DNA of 64,000 bases, from positions 62,589 to 126,588 of the forward strand of contig CAWHOE010000027.1 of NCBI GenBank assembly GCA_963830915.1. Reading direction: 5' to 3'. Made by a program: the position numbers and the translations under genes. The number at the start of each line of letters is the position of its first letter. The first letter of the stretch is position 1. The DNA is from a candidate division FCPU426 bacterium (lineage in GTDB: Bacteria > Oederibacteriota > Muellerivitia > Muellerivitales > Muellerivitaceae). A model generated the notes under the pieces. It made no database searches, was not told where the DNA came from, and saw only the letters and a list, made by a program, of their open reading frames with translations. Shown piece after piece: positions 2,867-63,457 of the stretch.

Positions 2867-2972
2867 CCACCAAGGGCACTAAGGGCACCAAGAAAAGCAA
2901 TTAATATTTTTTAAAAACCAATAATAATCTTTAATCTTTCATCGTTCTTGGTGATCTTGGTGTACTTGGTGG
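2867..2972. repeat. long-arm hairpin element, CCAC...GTGG family (arm type CACCAAGGG x3)
   Basis: Left arm ccaccaagggcactaagggcaccaaga (2867-2893), AT-rich 52-nt centre, right arm tcttggtgatcttggtgtacttggtgg (2946-2972). Lies between yraN and the cca fragment. Confidence 0.8.
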
Positions 2973-3377: not shown

Positions 3378-4399
3378 TCTTTTCCTCCGGAGGATCCATC
3401 CCCTTTGAACCGTTCCGCTATTCCGGCGTAGATCTGCCGTAGTTTTTCCAGGTCCTTGGCGGACATATTTTCCGAAGCCACCCTTTTGATGAGAAGACCG
3501 ATCCTTTTGAGGTCCGAACCAGTTTTCGCCCCTTCCAATTTCGAGGTCCAGTATCCCAAAGGTCCGCCCGACGCTTCCCGAGCCAGTGCCTCGGCCACAG
3601 GGCCGAAGGTCATTCGGTGTTCGGGGCACAATCCCTTTTCCTGGATGGCCTTCATGTGTTCGGCCGTGCCGTAACCCTTGTGGCTCAGGAATCTGTATTC
3701 CGGGTATTTCCGGTCGAGTTCCTCCATCATCCGGTCCCTGGTCACCTTGGCCATGATGGAAGCCGCGGCGATGCTGGCGGAGAGGGCGTCCCCATGGATG
3801 AGGGGTCTTTGGGGGATGTGGGGAAAGGAAGGGAGTTTCATGGCGTCGGTCAGCAAAAAATCCGGTGGTTTAGGCAGGTCGCGGATGGCCCGGTCCATGG
3901 CGAGCCTGGCGGCCTGAAAAATGTTCAATTCGTCGATCTCGGCCGCGCTGGCCTCGCCCAGACCGACGCCTTCGGCCTTTTGACGGATGACCTCGAACAG
4001 GGCGGCCCTTTTCTCGGGAGTGAGTTTCTTGGAGTCATCCACGCCCTTCAGGACCGTGCCGGGATAAAGCACGACCGCGCCGGCAACCACCGGCCCCGCC
4101 AGAGGGCCCCGGCCCGCCTCATCCACGCCCGCGATCAGGACATAGCCTTTCGCGGTCAGTTCTTTTTCATGGGCCCAAAGCCTGTCGAGCCGGAGGATCT
4201 CCGTCTCCTCGGCCTGGGCTTTTTTCAGGTATTTGGAAAGGAGATTTTTCGCCCCGGCCCGGGGGTCGTTCGTCAGTTCTTTTTTAAGGAACTCCAGGGC
4301 CAGGAGGGCGGAGCCTTCCTGGCGGGCCCTTTCTTCAAGGCTTGGGAGATGGGGAAGGAGTGGCATTGGCCGATCCGTCGTTGGAGTTATCCGCGTCAT
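3374..4399 (-). CDS. rnhB: ribonuclease HII with N- and C-terminal extensions
   Basis: Core GVDEAGRGPLAGPVVAGAV...DDSKKL...AASIMAKVTRD matches RNase HII. ~75 extra N-terminal and ~70 extra C-terminal residues. Alternative start at M12 (4366). Confidence 0.85.
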   Translation of the reverse strand: MTRITPTTDRPMPLLPHLPSLEERARQEGSALLALEFLKKELTNDPRAGAKNLLSKYLKKAQAEETEILRLDRLWAHEKELTAKGYVLIAGVDEAGRGPLAGPVVAGAVVLYPGTVLKGVDDSKKLTPEKRAALFEVIRQKAEGVGLGEASAAEIDELNIFQAARLAMDRAIRDLPKPPDFLLTDAMKLPSFPHIPQRPLIHGDALSASIAAASIMAKVTRDRMMEELDRKYPEYRFLSHKGYGTAEHMKAIQEKGLCPEHRMTFGPVAEALAREASGGPLGYWTSKLEGAKTGSDLKRIGLLIKRVASENMSAKDLEKLRQIYAGIAERFKGDGSSGGKD

Positions 4400-9125: not shown

Positions 9126-10238
9126 TTACTTAGCGACGACCTTATCGACCGCGAATACGAACTTACCCACGGTTTTCGGCTGGATGTTGAAGGTTTTCAC
9201 CAGGCTGAAATCCTGAGCGGCGCCCTTCACCGCGTCCGGCGGGGTGTAATAAGGATCCAACTTGAAGGAATCCAGTGAAACAGTGATGTTCTCCCACTTT
9301 CCGCCGCCCTTGGTGGAAGGAGCTTCCGCCACATATTGGTTGTTGTTCTTGTCCTTCAAGGCCAACCCGAGGACTACCGGATCCTTGGAGAAAACCGTCA
9401 GGGTGAGATTCTTGGCTCCCACCAGACTGATCCCGTCCCAGGTTTGCCCGGCCCGGCACCACATGCCGCAATAGCCGCCGTTGACATAGTTATAGGTCAC
9501 GAAGAGATATTTTTTCTTCGGCCCGGTCTTGAAACTGACCACATAAGAAGAACCATTGCTGTCCTGGAAAGTTCCATAGGTTTTCGGATCATCGGTTGAA
9601 AAGTCGGAAACGACGACCGCGCTTCCGTTAGAAACGGCCGGAGCCGCCGCCGCGGGGGCCGCGGACGCACCCGCGCTGGCATTCGCCGCGCCGCCACCCT
9701 TATCGGAAGAAATAGGTCCGACCTCGATGACCGCCGCTCCCACGATGTGGGAGGCCAGGTTCATGCCCGTGGTCTTGCTCAGGTCCATGGGATGTCCCGT
9801 GACCGCGTCAGAGGGAGTGTAATAAGGGTCCTTGATGAAGGATGAGACAGCGATGGTGACCGGCGCCCAATCCCCAGCCGCAACCTGGAAGTTGGAGATA
9901 TATTGCATGTTATAAGCGTCCTTCAAAGCCATCTGCATCTCGCCCGCGACCGTTGACTTGGCCATGAAGACCAGGTTGCCGGCTTGGGACAGATCGGTGG
10001 AGATGTTGTGCCAGATCCCAACGTATCCGCCTTGGGCCAGGGTGACGGTCAGCTTGATGGCCTTGGCTCCGCTAGGCCCAGCGTCCGTGGCGAAATCGAT
10101 CTTCGAACCGGTGGAATCGGCGTAGGTTCCGGTGTTGGTGCTAGGTACGACATTGGACCAGTCCTCGATGACTCCCGCCCAAGCGCTCGAAACCTGCAAC
10201 GCGAGGGAGATGAGCGCGCATCCTAAAAACTTTTTCAT
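9126..10238 (-). CDS. secreted protein with two tandem carbohydrate-binding-module-like domains
   Basis: Signal peptide MKKFLGCALISLALQVSSAWA. Two ~150-aa repeats both end ...(F/S)(I/F)K(D/L)DPYYTP(S/P)DAV.G, separated by an Ala/Gly-rich linker. The CBM/CIA30-like assignment is only a resemblance. Confidence 0.7.
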   Translation of the reverse strand: MKKFLGCALISLALQVSSAWAGVIEDWSNVVPSTNTGTYADSTGSKIDFATDAGPSGAKAIKLTVTLAQGGYVGIWHNISTDLSQAGNLVFMAKSTVAGEMQMALKDAYNMQYISNFQVAAGDWAPVTIAVSSFIKDPYYTPSDAVTGHPMDLSKTTGMNLASHIVGAAVIEVGPISSDKGGGAANASAGASAAPAAAAPAVSNGSAVVVSDFSTDDPKTYGTFQDSNGSSYVVSFKTGPKKKYLFVTYNYVNGGYCGMWCRAGQTWDGISLVGAKNLTLTVFSKDPVVLGLALKDKNNNQYVAEAPSTKGGGKWENITVSLDSFKLDPYYTPPDAVKGAAQDFSLVKTFNIQPKTVGKFVFAVDKVVAK

Positions 10239-41680: not shown

Positions 41681-41728
41681 ATTGGCCTTTGGAGACGGTT
41701 TATCTATCGCAAACTATCAAATTAATCA

Positions 41729-41894
41729 GCCACCGATTAACACCGATAAACACCGATTAGATTTCGATTTAAAATCAAGATTTAGACTTTTCCCATCAGT
41801 GTTCATGCCGACCTTCAATATAACTTTTAAAGAGGTCGGTATAGTACCGATTTCCATATTTTTTATTCCATTAGAAAATCGGCACATCGGTGAC
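41729..41894. repeat. degenerate / interrupted long-arm hairpin element (arm type CACCGATTAA x3)
   Basis: Left arm gccaccgattaacaccgataaacaccgatta (41729-41759); centre motif aaaatcaagattt (41771-41783); right-arm fragment ccatcagtgttcat (41792-41805); a ~70-nt unrelated hairpin-containing insert; then aatcggcacatcggtgac (41877-41894). Confidence 0.5.
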
Positions 41895-41952
41895 AAAAAC
41901 AGATTTTGCCTTTTTTCTTTTCTCTAAAATCATCTTGTTCCAGAAAATCTTG

Positions 41953-42494: not shown

Positions 42495-42599
42495 AACCAC
42501 AGAGTCACACGGAGTCACTCAGAGTTTAAAACCGGAAATAATTTTTGTTTCAAAAAATCAAAGACTTTACTCTGTGTGACTCTGTGCGACTCTGTGGTT
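42495..42599. repeat. long-arm hairpin element, CCAC...GTGG family (arm type CACAGAGTCA x3)
   Basis: Left arm aaccacagagtcacacggagtcactcagagt (42495-42525), 43-nt AT-rich centre containing aaaatcaaagacttt, right arm actctgtgtgactctgtgcgactctgtggtt (42569-42599). Confidence 0.85.
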
Positions 42600-43521: not shown

Positions 43522-44186
43522 TAAAAGATGGCTCCTTCCACTATTTCAGTGCCCTTGGGTATTTTGAATTCGAACAGGTCATCCTTCAGCCCTTTATTAT
43601 AGGTAAAGTTGGAGAAACGCGCCTTGGTAACCATCGAGGGAGTTGTCACTTCCATTTGGTAAGGCCACCAGTCTTTTTTGTGTATATAAACCCGCATTTT
43701 ATCGAACCCGGCGTTGTCGACCGTCGGCATGAAAAGCAGTCCGACCTCGTCGTTATCATCCTTGATGATGGAAACCCGGCTGATGGCCACGTAGCGCTTC
43801 AGCTCCTTGCCCACTCCCAGGTAGACCGGTCCCGAAGTGTCACCCTTCTCTTTGTGCTGTTGGTAGACCATCTTCTGGTCCGGTTGGTACATCTCCGCTA
43901 AGGGTCCCACCATATAGAGGAATTGCTCGCTGGGCTGGGTGTAATGGACCAGCACCTTGTTGGGGGATTTGATCTTCACCGTCCCCTTGGACTTTTGCTC
44001 TGTGCCCGACAGGGTGTCCTTCATTTCCATGCTCAAGTCCATCTGCACATCCTGGATGGCCGACTGGGCCTCCTCGACCTTATCCGTCACATCCGTCACG
44101 GACAGGGCCTTCTTGGGTTGGTCCGCCCAAACCGGGAAGGAAAGACACACAATCATTAACCACAGAGACACAGAGACACAGCTCAA
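43521..44186 (-). CDS. LolA-like outer-membrane lipoprotein carrier / sorting protein
   Basis: Mature part (ADQPKKALSVTDV...TVKIKSPNK.LVHYTQP...YQMEVT...FEFKIPKGTEIVE) is LolA-like. Conserved ftsK-lolA synteny. Start uncertain (TTG 44186 or 44216). The tracked ORF to 44429 reads through the repeat arms. Confidence 0.7.
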   Translation of the reverse strand: MSCVSVSLWLMIVCLSFPVWADQPKKALSVTDVTDKVEEAQSAIQDVQMDLSMEMKDTLSGTEQKSKGTVKIKSPNKVLVHYTQPSEQFLYMVGPLAEMYQPDQKMVYQQHKEKGDTSGPVYLGVGKELKRYVAISRVSIIKDDNDEVGLLFMPTVDNAGFDKMRVYIHKKDWWPYQMEVTTPSMVTKARFSNFTYNKGLKDDLFEFKIPKGTEIVEGAIF

Positions 44187-44306
44187 TAAATTAGGAAAAC
44201 CAAAATTCTGAATCAAATTCTTGTGTCGCTGTGTCTCTGTGCCTCTGTGGTGAAAATCATTCGTTTTATCTAACACTTTTAGCTGTGCCTCTGTGTCTCT
44301 GTGGTG
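44158..44306. repeat. long-arm hairpin element with one left and two right arms (arm type CACAGAGA x3)
   Basis: L aaccacagagacacagagacacagc (44158-44183); R1 gtgtcgctgtgtctctgtgcctctgtggtg (44223-44252); R2 gctgtgcctctgtgtctctgtggtg (44282-44306). Confidence 0.8.
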
Positions 44307-44319
44307 AAAGCCGTATGTT

Positions 44320-46749: not shown

Positions 46750-46814
46750 TGCCTTATCGAGCCTTTACGAAAGTATTAAACTGGCACAAGCACACCAGCC
46801 CAAAATAAAATTTT

Positions 46815-46905
46815 GCCACAGATACATGGGATTCATGAGATTTTAAAATCGTGATAATTTTAAACTCTTTCTTCGCCTATCCAATGCATCCCATGCATCT
46901 GTGGC
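46815..46905. repeat. long-arm hairpin element, CCAC...GTGG family (arm type CACAGATA/CATGGGATT/CATGAGAT)
   Basis: Left arm gccacagatacatgggattcatgagat (46815-46842), AT-rich centre, right arm atccaatgcatcccatgcatctgtggc (46879-46905). Upstream of ftsK. Confidence 0.75.
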
Positions 46906-47204
46906 TAATTAAGCCTTAGCCGTGCCTTTTATCCTAAACAATAAATTCAATTGATTTGACTATCTATGGCCTTGGGATTACGCCTTTCTCGGACAGTCGT
47001 GTGACACAAGATATCAGCGAAGAACCGAGATATAGACTCCGGGAAAGCGTTTTTTTGAGTCAGTTGGTGGCGGAAGTTCATTCTGGATTCAAAGTATAGA
47101 CCATCCGAGAGGCCCATTTGAAGATAAATGTTTCTGCCGAACCTCGGCCTTTCATCCTGTAAAATGAAACCCCTCAAGCCGTCCTGACCCATGAAAGGAT
47201 CACC

Positions 47205-48149: not shown

Positions 48150-48317
48150 ATGGGCAATCAGGACAAAAACCCCAAAAGCCTTTCCCACGCCAAAGACAAA
48201 GACCTTTTGAAGAACCCTTCCTACAAAAACATGATCAATCCCTATGAAAGTAAGTATCCTCAAAAGAAGAAGGCTATTGATCCAGCTACACAGGGATTTC
48301 GAAAAAAACAGAAATAG
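48150..48317 (+). CDS. possible small Lys-rich protein (55 aa)
   Basis: ATG 48150 preceded by AGGAAG. MGNQDKNPKSLSHAKDKDLLKNPSYKNMINPYESKYPQKKKAIDPATQGFRKKQK, stop 48315-48317. Below the ORF-track cut-off; no homology recognised. Confidence 0.25.
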   Translation: MGNQDKNPKSLSHAKDKDLLKNPSYKNMINPYESKYPQKKKAIDPATQGFRKKQK

Positions 48318-48341
48318 TCATTTTCAGTGAGGCTAGATTAA

Positions 48342-49100
48342 ATGCGACTATTAAGTCGGTCGAAAATTTTATTGGCGGCTACTTTACTTTTATCTAGTTG
48401 CACACTACTTAATAAAAACACTCCTTCAAAATTAATACTCGGTAAGAATTTGGCACTCCAAACTCTCGTATTAGAAACACCCGAATATGACGGTTCATAC
48501 GGAAAAACAAAAATATCTATCTATTCAGTACCAGATAACAAAAAAACGAAAGATTTCGTCCTCGAAGGTATTTGGCATTGTTTGGGGTACATCACAAGCA
48601 GGAAATCTTTTTTTCTTGTAGGAGAATTTCAAGAGGGAGCGTGTCTGCCATTAACAAAAATAAAATATTTATCTGAAGATAACTACGAAGTTACTGATTC
48701 TAAGTACCGGTATAACGCCATCAAAGGTGATAACGATCCATTAAGTTGGAACGCTTTGACGGCCGTACCAAGTGAAGATTTAAAATACATTGCTTTTGTC
48801 GGCGACCTAGGAAAAGCAAATACTCGGTTAATAGTTTTAAATACAGACAAAGATTTGATGACTGTTTTAGGAGACCCGCCCGCGCCACCACCCATTTCAG
48901 ATCCATATTGGCAAAAAGAAGCTTTACGGCAAAGTCCCGATAATTGGGTATGGGATTTTCCATGCGTTGATGGATATGTTGAGATGGACAATGGAATTAT
49001 TAGGTTTAACAAAGATACTTTGTCCGTAAGTTATGGGAACGATACGGTTATCAAAAGGTCTGGTAAAAGAAAAACAAAGACCTGGAAACTAAAGATTTAA
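48342..49100 (+). CDS. hypothetical lipoprotein (AT-rich islet)
   Basis: MRLLSRSKILLAATLLLSSC lipobox; 252 aa; visibly AT-rich codon usage unlike the flanking genes. Confidence 0.6.
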   Translation: MRLLSRSKILLAATLLLSSCTLLNKNTPSKLILGKNLALQTLVLETPEYDGSYGKTKISIYSVPDNKKTKDFVLEGIWHCLGYITSRKSFFLVGEFQEGACLPLTKIKYLSEDNYEVTDSKYRYNAIKGDNDPLSWNALTAVPSEDLKYIAFVGDLGKANTRLIVLNTDKDLMTVLGDPPAPPPISDPYWQKEALRQSPDNWVWDFPCVDGYVEMDNGIIRFNKDTLSVSYGNDTVIKRSGKRKTKTWKLKI

Positions 49101-49176
49101 AACACCAATAAAACCTTTGAAGCGGTAAAAGGAACAAAAAATTCTGAAATAGTAGAAACAACAAAGGACTCATCAA

Positions 49177-62374: not shown

Positions 62375-63457
62375 CTAGTTTTTACCGCGGGTATTCGGCT
62401 GAGTATTGGTATATAGGAATTTAGCCATTTTGGCGGCTAACCCTCCCTGTAAGACCCCTTGGATAGCCTGGGCCGTATCGTAGGTCTTTTGGCTCCCGGT
62501 AATGGCCAAGTGGATTTCATAATCCTCCCCACCCTTATATTTGACTTTTAGGTTGGGGGCAAACTCCTTCCAGACCTCTTCATTGACGTCTTTACCCTTC
62601 TTACCCCCCTTAGACCCGGCACTAGGGTCAAAATCCTGAGGTTCGTTACCCTTTTTGATCCAATCAATAAACTTCTTGACCACATCCACTGACATTTCGT
62701 TATCGATTATCAGTCCTATGGCTTCATCGATTAAATCTGGGTCTTCCAGCACTGCCAAAGCCAGTAAGACATACTCGGTTATCTGGTAATCGGACTCCGT
62801 TTTGCCCCGACTCGGGGCAACATCCTCCTCATCCTCGTTTTCTTTGCCCCGAGTCGGGGCAAAAACATCCCCATGAACCGGGGGTTTGTCCAAATTAAGG
62901 TTTATTGTGTCCTTGGCCCAGTCGTTAATAACCTTGCCCAATATCAAAGCATTGCCCACTTTTGTTTTGGATACCCCTAACCGCTTGGCCAACTGCCTTT
63001 GGGGCATATCGGGAAAGGCTTTGTGTTCGGCCTGAATCGCCAAATCCCAGTCCCACCAGTCCATTTCATCCAGGTTATTGTCCATCAGAGAGGCCAGATG
63101 GGTATCTTCAGGTGGGATATTCAGGACGATAGAATCAAGGGTTTCCAAACCAGCCAATTTAGCCCCTGCCAGGCGCCGATGACCCCCAATCAACATATAT
63201 TCGAAACCCAGTTCGCCTATTGTTTTCTTAGGCACTTCCTGCCCTGGCCATTCCGGTTTCTGGAAACCCGCTTTTTCCTCTGTTGTCAGGGGGCGAACCT
63301 TAATAGGGGTTTGCTGACCAATAGCCAATAGGGATTCGACCATGACCTGGATAGACCCCGGTCTGAACCGATGCCTTGGCTGGTCAGGATTTTCCATGAT
63401 CTTTGAAACGGGGATCTTGACGATGGACGGATTGGTATTCGGGCCTGCGTTAGACAT
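62375..63457 (-). CDS. ParB/Srx-fold N-terminal domain + HTH protein (ParB/KorB/VirB-like)
   Basis: IMENPDQPRHRF...MVESLLAIGQQTPIKVRP (ParB box I/II region), LIGGHRRLAGAKLAG (GxxRxxA arginine patch), HTH QRQLAKRLGVSKTKVGNAL, acidic linker, Lys-rich C-terminal domain. Confidence 0.8.
   Translation of the reverse strand: MSNAGPNTNPSIVKIPVSKIMENPDQPRHRFRPGSIQVMVESLLAIGQQTPIKVRPLTTEEKAGFQKPEWPGQEVPKKTIGELGFEYMLIGGHRRLAGAKLAGLETLDSIVLNIPPEDTHLASLMDNNLDEMDWWDWDLAIQAEHKAFPDMPQRQLAKRLGVSKTKVGNALILGKVINDWAKDTINLNLDKPPVHGDVFAPTRGKENEDEEDVAPSRGKTESDYQITEYVLLALAVLEDPDLIDEAIGLIIDNEMSVDVVKKFIDWIKKGNEPQDFDPSAGSKGGKKGKDVNEEVWKEFAPNLKVKYKGGEDYEIHLAITGSQKTYDTAQAIQGVLQGGLAAKMAKFLYTNTQPNTRGKN
62802..62862. repeat. 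two 19-bp GC-rich palindromes inside the parB-like CDS
   Basis: ttgccccgaCtcggggcaa (62802-62820) and ttgccccgaGtcggggcaa (62844-62862), 42 bp centre to centre. Translated as VAPSRGK / FAPTRGK in the acidic linker. Confidence 0.85.

Follow-up and report, generated by a model that had tools for sequence, protein, structure and literature searches.

Intergenic hairpin elements made of three-unit heptamer modules in a candidate division FCPU426 bacterium

Seven intergenic loci within a 64,000-nucleotide (nt) stretch of DNA from a candidate division FCPU426 bacterium (contig CAWHOE010000027.1, positions 62,589 to 126,588; this whole stretch is referred to here as the window) carry long-armed hairpin elements that belong to one family. 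The loci, which start near window positions 2867, 41729, 42495, 44158, 46815, 53648, and 54457, have a common architecture, and all of them are present as an earlier, sequence-only reading of the window had described. Comparison of the loci with one another and with relatives of this bacterium shows movement between loci, turnover, local duplication of arms, and nesting, with gain, loss, and replacement of elements on the time scale of 2-3% sequence divergence. The elements are dispensable: orthologous intergenic regions (IGRs) in relatives are either empty or otherwise filled. The explanation toward which we lean slightly is that they are a small noncoding, mobile (selfish) family of palindromic repeats, similar in role to REPINs or to MITEs (miniature inverted-repeat transposable elements). 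The family is apparently undescribed; literature searches, both by concept and by sequence string, turned up no account of it.

Module anatomy, turnover, and distribution

Each arm of a hairpin is a module of ~30 nt, composed of a T-rich leader (TTTAR), the tetranucleotide CCAC, and three tandem units of 8-10 nt. A unit consists of a heptamer core, CAC-N-R-A-K, plus a spacer of 1-3 nt, which gives a period of 8, 9, or 10. All arms of a set of 36 hairpins, taken from the window, its relatives, and other sources, fit this plan; core positions C1, C3, R5, and A6 are nearly invariant, and the spacers are free. In the hairpin form, two modules of the same type are inverted around an AT-rich spacer of 15-60 nt, and the ends of the element read TTTAR-CCAC...GTGG-YTAAA. 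Modules also occur alone and in direct arrays. The number of units is almost always three, with 209 runs of three vs 8 of four or more in phage contigs, and with 15 runs of three, 16 of two followed by a decayed third, and zero of four or more in the window group. Arms that start with CCAC and have an 8-10-nt tandem periodicity number 12 in the window, whereas 0.02 are expected in shuffled sequence. As had been noted from the sequence alone, arms vary between loci and match within a locus. They are not, however, the unrelated sequences that they were taken to be, since they have in common the heptamer core and the 1-3-nt spacer.

Distant copies within the window can be closely related. The right arms at 42569-42598 and 54525-54554 are identical at 30 of 30 positions and their adjoining loops are related, and the element at 41729 is the 53648 element flipped, with the same arm variants in reverse order. 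Because such copies have even the free positions in common, whole elements must have been copied between loci.

A related strain that is 97-98% identical to the window, and whose sequence is available in public contigs (L001/L014, L156, and L164), reveals how quickly the loci change. The hairpin at 46815 is identical in this strain and that at 53648 differs by one spacer substitution. At 44158 the arms are kept, with four extra-arm copies vs two in the window, spaced by a 54-nt period. At 42495 the arms are also kept; the loop is different and a small element (element X, below) lies within the left arm. At 41729 a 247-bp segment (41706-41952) is absent, leaving an IGR of 22 nt. In the window this strain-variable segment starts directly 3' of the YajQ stop codon and has an imperfect 6-bp direct repeat, TTATCT/TTACCT, at its flanks. 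At 2867 a CACAGAGTCA-type hairpin replaces the CACCAAG type, between flanks that match at 99-100% as far as the stop codon and ribosome-binding site, and at 54457 an unrelated palindromic element occupies the IGR. Polymorphic segments start at the TA of stop codons. Among more distant relatives, the IGRs orthologous to the 41706-41952 site are 22-27 nt long in four others, and the FtsK-LolA and RodZ-YajQ IGRs of 15 syntenic genomes are empty (12-33 nt) or otherwise occupied, in which case they contain a hairpin with a different unit type, an arm that has decayed, or simple heptamer repeats. The 46815 hairpin is absent from the orthologous, 171-195-nt IGRs of more distant relatives.

Several further small elements were observed at these sites. 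Element X, a 79-nt double hairpin nested in the 41729 element (41806-41884, plus strand), has the form TGCCGACC...GGTCGG / ACCGATTT...AAATCGGCA, with ends TGCCGA/TCGGCA and CA/CA flanks. Its copy in the related strain lies at L001 ~9855-9935, and the host arm differs between the two strains; element X has the look of a REPIN- or PATE-like micro-element that is actively moving and takes arms as its target. The palindromic element that stands in place of the 54457 hairpin (L164 6424-6592, equivalent to window 54439-54578) reads GTCATTGCGAGGAGCG...GGCAATCTCAG...CTGAGATTGC...CTCGCAATGAC and is widespread; a similar sequence adjoins modules in a phage contig (L048). The 42495 loop (42526-42568) is wholly different from that in L001, with arms and flanks conserved, and its forward and reverse alignments to the related strain score equally, which leaves inversion and conversion undistinguished. 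Finally, (CTGTCAG)4 and (CTGTCGG)n heptamer repeats are present directly 3' of the FtsK stop codon in the FtsK-LolA IGRs of L020 and L017/L021, respectively, at the site that a hairpin element occupies in other relatives.

Modules also occur in other genomes and in phages. A degenerate pattern that describes one arm matched at least 120 stretches in IMG/VR. Among the matches listed, an inverted partner is present in ~17-21 of 160, and the other IMG/VR matches listed are solo, in direct arrays with a 47-54-nt period, or beside modules of other unit types. The contigs rich in modules are genuine phage sequences: they carry genes for capsid, for terminase, and for Mu-like transposition. Modules are strongly same-stranded within a contig (0:13, 0:9, 10:0), and their orientation relative to genes, as judged with a crude open reading frame (ORF) caller, shows no clear bias (45 sense vs 36 antisense). 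Pieces of the Bacteroides finegoldii chromosome carry hairpins of the same architecture (in the dnaB-pheT and rlmD-rluA intervals and beside a cat gene), and plasmid pTs485 of Ca. Thiodictyon syntrophicum carries a perfect copy with 29-nt arms. Weaker arm-like matches, which are partial, solo, or variant in the core, are found in plasmids of Gloeothece, Dolichospermum, Anabaena, and Aulosira. Carriers include cultivable bacteria (B. finegoldii, Gloeothece PCC 7424) as well as phages, and identical units such as CACAGATGAA recur in different phyla. Profile hidden Markov models built from modules outside the window recover the window arms with E values from 1e-8 to 1e-3 and have no other matches in the window; these were used rather than a covariance model because loop length ranges between 10 and 90 nt and because, by the register comparison below, structure contributes no information over that in the module sequence. 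A BLAST search of cultured-phage records gave no match, possibly as a result of low-complexity masking.

Some contigs hold unusual arrangements. In L036 (IMG/VR, isolate genome 645058788) a CACAGAGT-type hairpin at 1181-1634 has a center made of three tandem copies of a ~133-nt insert. A phage-like contig, L112, contains at 3620-3930 a simple tandem array, (GCCACAGATA)n, of ~30 units that uses the vocabulary of the module core. Three contigs from IMG/VR 3300037461 (L041, L048, and L049) have a GC skew of -0.42 to -0.48 and carry modules of two or three unit types head to tail within the same IGRs.

Arm complementarity and competing explanations

The sequence-only reading had taken the compensatory variation of the arms as an argument for selection on a folded RNA or DNA. 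This was evaluated with an alignment of 22 period-10 hairpins. In the true register, 85.2% of positions form standard pairs and the covariation score is 0.271, a value reached by 0 of 500 shuffles. When the register is slid by one whole unit, 81.4% of positions are paired (85.5% without one forced end mismatch) and the score is 0.281. The signal is thus real but register-independent, and it does not support the claim. Likewise, units differ to the same extent whether they are base-pairing partners (15.6%), non-partners across arms (15.8%), or neighbors within one arm (15.2%). Mismatches between arms amount to 8.9% in the heptamer cores vs 41.8% in the spacers (Fisher p = 7e-21), and those in the cores cluster at the N position. 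The arms are complementary because all six units of an element belong to one type rather than because individual pairs are maintained, and the best-supported explanation of stem complementarity is that it is a by-product of unit homogeneity. The argument from folding is undercut further by the solo arms, by the restricted vocabulary seen across phyla, and by the gain, loss, and swapping of elements between near-identical strains. A general caution follows from this case: homogeneity of repeat units can by itself mimic stem covariation.

As these comparisons show, whole elements copy to new intergenic sites in either orientation, grow locally by tandem duplication of an arm, and offer their arms as landing pads for another tiny element. 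DNA or a transcript passing through an element could form a stem of ~28 bp. What mobilizes them is probably a trans-acting protein, encoded elsewhere, that would recognize the CCAC foot together with the three heptamer cores of each arm; by analogy with the action of HUH/Y1 enzymes on REPs, it may do so on single-stranded or cruciform DNA. Effects on host mRNA, such as cleavage by RNase III or protection of 3' ends, would then be by-products.

Several observations weigh against this proposal. Among the 36 hairpins there is no excess of 2-4-bp direct repeats at offsets of 0-7 from the hairpin ends, that is, no target-site duplication (TSD); the sole pair of empty and filled sites has the imperfect 6-bp repeat around the 247-bp composite segment. 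No HUH/Y1, PF01797-type, or other candidate mobilizer domain was found in the window ORFs that were scanned or in 120 ORFs of module-rich phage contigs. The only matches of the transposase type, in two of these phage ORFs, were to Mu-like phage transposase and integrase-core domains and reflect the phages' own genes. Recombination between old alleles, rather than recent insertion, could also account for an IGR with different occupants, and the strain-specific segments exceed the hairpin and span the whole IGR, which blurs the ends of the element. The origin of new unit types, in which all six units have changed together, is not accounted for. Among mismatches on the transcribed strand, G-U exceeds A-C weakly (16 vs 8), although not significantly. 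Lastly, a unit number that does not vary and a core motif found across phyla hint at a sequence-specific function beyond what a selfish model needs. Neither this strict grammar nor the recurrence of identical units across phyla is required by such a model, and the modules may have a sequence-specific binding function.

One rival explanation, which was the view of the sequence-only reading, holds that the elements are functional RNA hairpins that stabilize, process, or terminate flanking mRNAs, and that selection on the fold keeps the arms complementary. We consider this doubtful. The predicted folds of six elements are very stable on both strands (-34 to -60 kcal/mol; z-scores of -6.8 to -11.8), and several elements lie inside co-directional gene strings, where they must be transcribed. 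In two such cases the sense strand folds better than the antisense strand (-50.4 vs -39.5 kcal/mol at 53648 and -50.8 vs -44.4 kcal/mol at 44158), and the excess of G-U mismatches on the sense strand has the direction that this explanation predicts. However, that bias is not significant, there is no pair-specific covariation, and the spacers tolerate 42% mismatch. In addition, elements are absent from orthologous IGRs in relatives and in the 97%-identical strain, give way to other types or to unrelated elements, and in one case occupy a divergent promoter region; solo arms are unable to form the hairpin at all. That these are not ordinary terminators, as had been argued before, is borne out by their loops of 15-60 nt, by the lack of a U-tract after the hairpins, and by a scan of the window for intrinsic terminators, which yielded 11 vs 8.1 expected, without enrichment, and flagged no full hairpin element. 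The nearest flags were a short stem in element X (41832-41854) and, at 46900-46924, a stem that runs into the right arm of the 46815 hairpin at its outer end. A scan for σ70 promoters showed no enrichment. At the gathering threshold no Rfam family matches the hairpins, the only matches (tRNA, TPP, and Bacteroides-1) being elsewhere, and at permissive thresholds the hairpins give only sub-threshold matches to generic miRNA precursors (long hairpins). Copies that are transcribed must all the same form very stable stems, and these may have incidental effects on mRNA processing.

A second possibility, to which we give equally little credence, is that the modules are binding-site arrays in which three phased heptamers per arm are read by a DNA- or RNA-binding protein of the host or phage, the hairpin being incidental. 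Such arrays can be likened to iterons or to the regulators proposed to bind TAACTGA repeats. The near invariance of C1, C3, R5, and A6 beside free spacers, the exact number of three units with a conserved TTTAR-C leader, the presence of the same vocabulary in five distant lineages, and the placement of modules on the same strand within a contig all fit this idea. It is harder to reconcile with the variation in N4, K7, spacer, and period (8, 9, or 10) among types that coexist in one genome, since either one very tolerant factor or many factors would then be needed. The elements are moreover dispensable and polymorphic between near-identical strains, have no consistent orientation or distance to genes, and come with no candidate protein.

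A broader and equally tentative proposal is that the triple-heptad module is the cis-site of an unrecognized, horizontally spreading system, either one of hairpin or single-stranded DNA mobilization or one based on a "three-unit" nucleic-acid-binding factor, in which each unit type would have its own trans-acting specificity. The strict grammar with interchangeable unit types across phyla points to specific recognition machinery. If true, the proposal would explain why all six units of an element are alike, why different types coexist in one genome, and why identical unit sequences are found in Bacteroidota, Cyanobacteriota, Chromatiales, and an uncultured lineage as well as in their phages.

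It is quite unlikely that the elements are classical MITEs, that is, deletion derivatives of an insertion sequence (IS) of the DDE class (for example, of the IS630 type with a TA target) whose arms serve as terminal inverted repeats for a cognate transposase. Their inverted-repeat arms, small size, noncoding nature, high copy number, and insertion polymorphism are all MITE-like; polymorphic segments begin at the TA of a stop codon, and IS630-family genes are annotated near two of the cyanobacterial plasmid hits. But the absence of TSDs in the 36 hairpins agrees with the earlier view that these are not elements with terminal inverted repeats and TSDs, and at least eight arm types coexist, so that an equal number of transposase specificities would be needed. 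Both solo arms and direct arrays on one strand are frequent. In 1.3 Mb of loci, the DNA enclosed by inverted module pairs (250-7000 nt apart) was searched for a parent IS or transposon with module ends; none was found there, only ordinary phage structural and Mu-like genes. Least likely of all is that the elements are replication by-products, in which slippage repeats were turned into quasi-palindromes by template switching at each locus independently, without mobility or function: partnerless heptamer tandem repeats in the FtsK-LolA IGRs of some relatives (L020, L017), arm copy numbers that vary by tandem duplication, and the long (GCCACAGATA)n array of one phage contig are as expected, but slippage would have spread the unit count, which is instead fixed at three, a conserved leader and CCAC precede every module, arms at distant loci are identical even at free spacer positions, and the same units are found in different phyla.

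Loci in the window and their genomic context

The seven best hits of an inverted-repeat scan of the window are hairpin loci, whose arms measure 27-33 nt, are complementary at 82-93% of positions, and lie 37-55 nt apart (I5, 2862-2977; I4, 42495-42599; I1/I6, 44156-44308; I7, 46812-46908; I2, 53645-53749; I3, 54458-54554). The locus at 41729 was recovered by separate analyses, including the scan for periodic CCAC arms. Three of the loci, 41729-41894, 44158-44306, and 53648-53789, are composites. The first of these is a hairpin with its right arm interrupted by element X, the second a hairpin followed by a second, direct copy of the right arm, and the third a hairpin accompanied by a solo arm of a different type.

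Two hairpins have a CACCGAT unit and a period of 10. In the one at 41729-41894 (profile E = 2e-6), the left module lies at 41730-41757 and the right arm falls into two parts, 41794-41805 and 41885-41894. In the other, at 53648-53746 (profile E = 1e-8), the arms lie at 53649-53676 and 53718-53745, and CCAC begins directly 3' of the TAG stop codon of a GH2 gene; the accompanying solo module, of the CACAGAGA type, is at ~53765-53789 on the minus strand and is without an inverted partner. Two others have the unit CACAGAGTC(A/G), also with a period of 10: the hairpin at 42495-42599 (arms 42497-42525 and 42569-42597) in the RodZ-YajQ IGR, and that at 54457-54554 (arms 54459-54486 and 54526-54553) between two convergent genes. 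The centers of these two contain the motif AAAATC..AAGA.TT, which had been noted in three loci. The motif is present at all three positions given for it (42554-42568, 54509-54523, and 41771-41783). Since the 42495 and 54457 right arms are identical and belong to one subfamily, only the third copy is independent.

The hairpin at 2862-2977 has a CACCAAG unit with a period of 9; its left module is at 2867-2892 (plus strand) and its right module at 2947-2972 (minus strand), recovered by the period-9 profile with E = 2e-6 and 2e-5, and it makes up the entire IGR between a UPF0102 gene and a poly(A)-polymerase-like gene. The hairpin at 44158-44252, in the FtsK-LolA IGR, has the unit CACAGAG(A/G), a period of 8, and arms at 44160-44183 and 44227-44250. 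Its extra right-arm copy, together with ~30 nt of flank, spans 44254-44308 on the minus strand, with the module at 44281-44304 and a period of 54 nt. The last hairpin, at 46815-46905, combines the units CACAGAT and CATGGGAT with a period of 8-9, has arms at 46816-46841 and 46879-46904, and occupies the divergent promoter region of Mem_trans and FtsK genes. Overall, the IGRs at 42495, 44158, 53648, and 41729 lie between co-directional genes, those at 2867 (by the ORF calls used here) and 54457 between convergent genes, and that at 46815 between divergent genes.

The window is ordinary bacterial chromosome, with genes for RimM-TrmD-L19, RuvABC, tRNA synthetases, SufBCD, RecO, YajQ, RodZ, LolA, FtsK, and glycoside hydrolases; none of the ORFs scanned carries a domain of the transposase or HUH type. 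Sequences of this uncultured organism derive from metagenomes of peat or wetland; its RodZ is 58% identical to that of the nearest species-level genome. At seven per 64 kb, the frequency of the elements is high, and they have practical consequences. They produce spurious ORFs and false N-terminal extensions: the suggestion that read-through ORFs mislead annotation proved right, with one public gene call stretching LolA to 312 amino acids through the arms. They also break metagenome assemblies, leaving contig ends within an arm; two public contigs of the window's own strain stop at 54550, inside an arm. Moreover, they render the IGRs of near-identical strains non-homologous, which matters for strain typing, for pangenome analyses of IGRs, and for operon expression.

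Other features of the window were observed apart from the hairpin family. Positions 1-2213 (GC ~45%) are not collinear with other contigs of either strain, and the poly(A)-polymerase-like gene is cut at 2214, yet continues normally in L156 and L160; this end of the window may be an assembly chimera or an insertion. Three segments of low GC content (38-41%), at 48306-49160, 51068-51898, and 57513-58083, are variable between strains. In these segments one gene is swapped for a non-homologous gene, a 280-amino-acid ORF with a Big_14 domain is found only in the window, and 572 nt in the window correspond to 4.3 kb with five genes, including a DUF5131 gene, in the related strain. A REP-like, perfect 19-nt palindrome, TTGCCCCGA[C/G]TCGGGGCAA, is present twice, at 62802-62820 and 62844-62862, with 23 nt between the copies, inside or beside a ParB-like ORF; there are no other copies in the window.

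Comparison with known systems

Several families of small repeats offer points of comparison. REP, BIME, and REPIN sequences are mobilized by RAYT (TnpA-REP, HUH-Y1) proteins (PMC3116915; PMC6006769; PMC3733652), and a REP monomer is an imperfect palindrome of 20-40 nt with a 5' foot of GT[AG]G, CGTC, or CnGA (PMC6006769). Like these, the hairpin elements are short noncoding intergenic repeats that form inverted doublets as long hairpins, have a tetranucleotide foot at the base of the stem, lack TSDs, fall into several subfamilies per genome, vary between strains in their IGRs, and are targets for other small elements. Unlike REPs, their arms are three tandem direct units with no internal complementarity. 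Polarity is reversed as well: on both strands CCAC forms the 5' foot, and GTGG stands on the 3' side. In addition, no RAYT gene was found in the window ORFs scanned or in the 120 ORFs of module-rich contigs.

Short tandemly repeated repetitive (STRR) heptamers, long simple sequence repeats, and TAACTGA direct repeats are found in cyanobacteria, Beggiatoaceae/Chromatiaceae, and Bacteroidetes (MacGregor 2015, PMC4679880, and work cited there). They too are tandem, intergenic repeats with a 7-nt core and few copies per set, and they occur in Cyanobacteria, Bacteroidetes, and Chromatiales, the same unusual trio as the plasmid-database matches of the module. However, the units described here are 8-10 nt long, all begin with CAC, and are preceded by a leader and CCAC; their number is fixed at three instead of varying by slippage; and the sets stand as inverted pairs, with many unit types coexisting. 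MITEs such as Correia/NEMIS, Nezha, and ERIC resemble the elements in size, lack of coding capacity, inverted ends, intergenic dispersal, and presence/absence polymorphism. The differences are that here TSDs and, in the 1.3 Mb searched, a parent IS with module ends are missing, the arm sequence is not conserved across the family, the arms are internally tandem-repetitive, and solo arms are frequent.

The small dispersed repeats of Nostoc, described by Elhai et al. in 2008, are reportedly very small elements that nest in other repeats, including tandem heptamers. Element X nests likewise inside hairpin arms; the Nostoc repeats reportedly differ in sequence, size, and organism. The attC sites of integrons, which were the implicit model of the sequence-only reading, are similar in that the family is known by its ends and its fold while internal sequence varies. 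Here, however, RYYYAAC/GTTRRRY core sites, a cassette array, and an integrase are all lacking; the elements are flanked by housekeeping genes (FtsK, LolA, RodZ, YajQ; also GH2); and the arm sequence is constrained. Resemblances to a DnaA box, Chi, a CsrA site, a T7 class II terminator, and a Rho site were considered and dropped, as each suits some unit types only.

The family appears not to have been described before, with no match in Rfam or in the literature searched and with some defining features of each of REPs, MITEs, and tandem repeats lacking. The elements act most like REPINs or MITEs.

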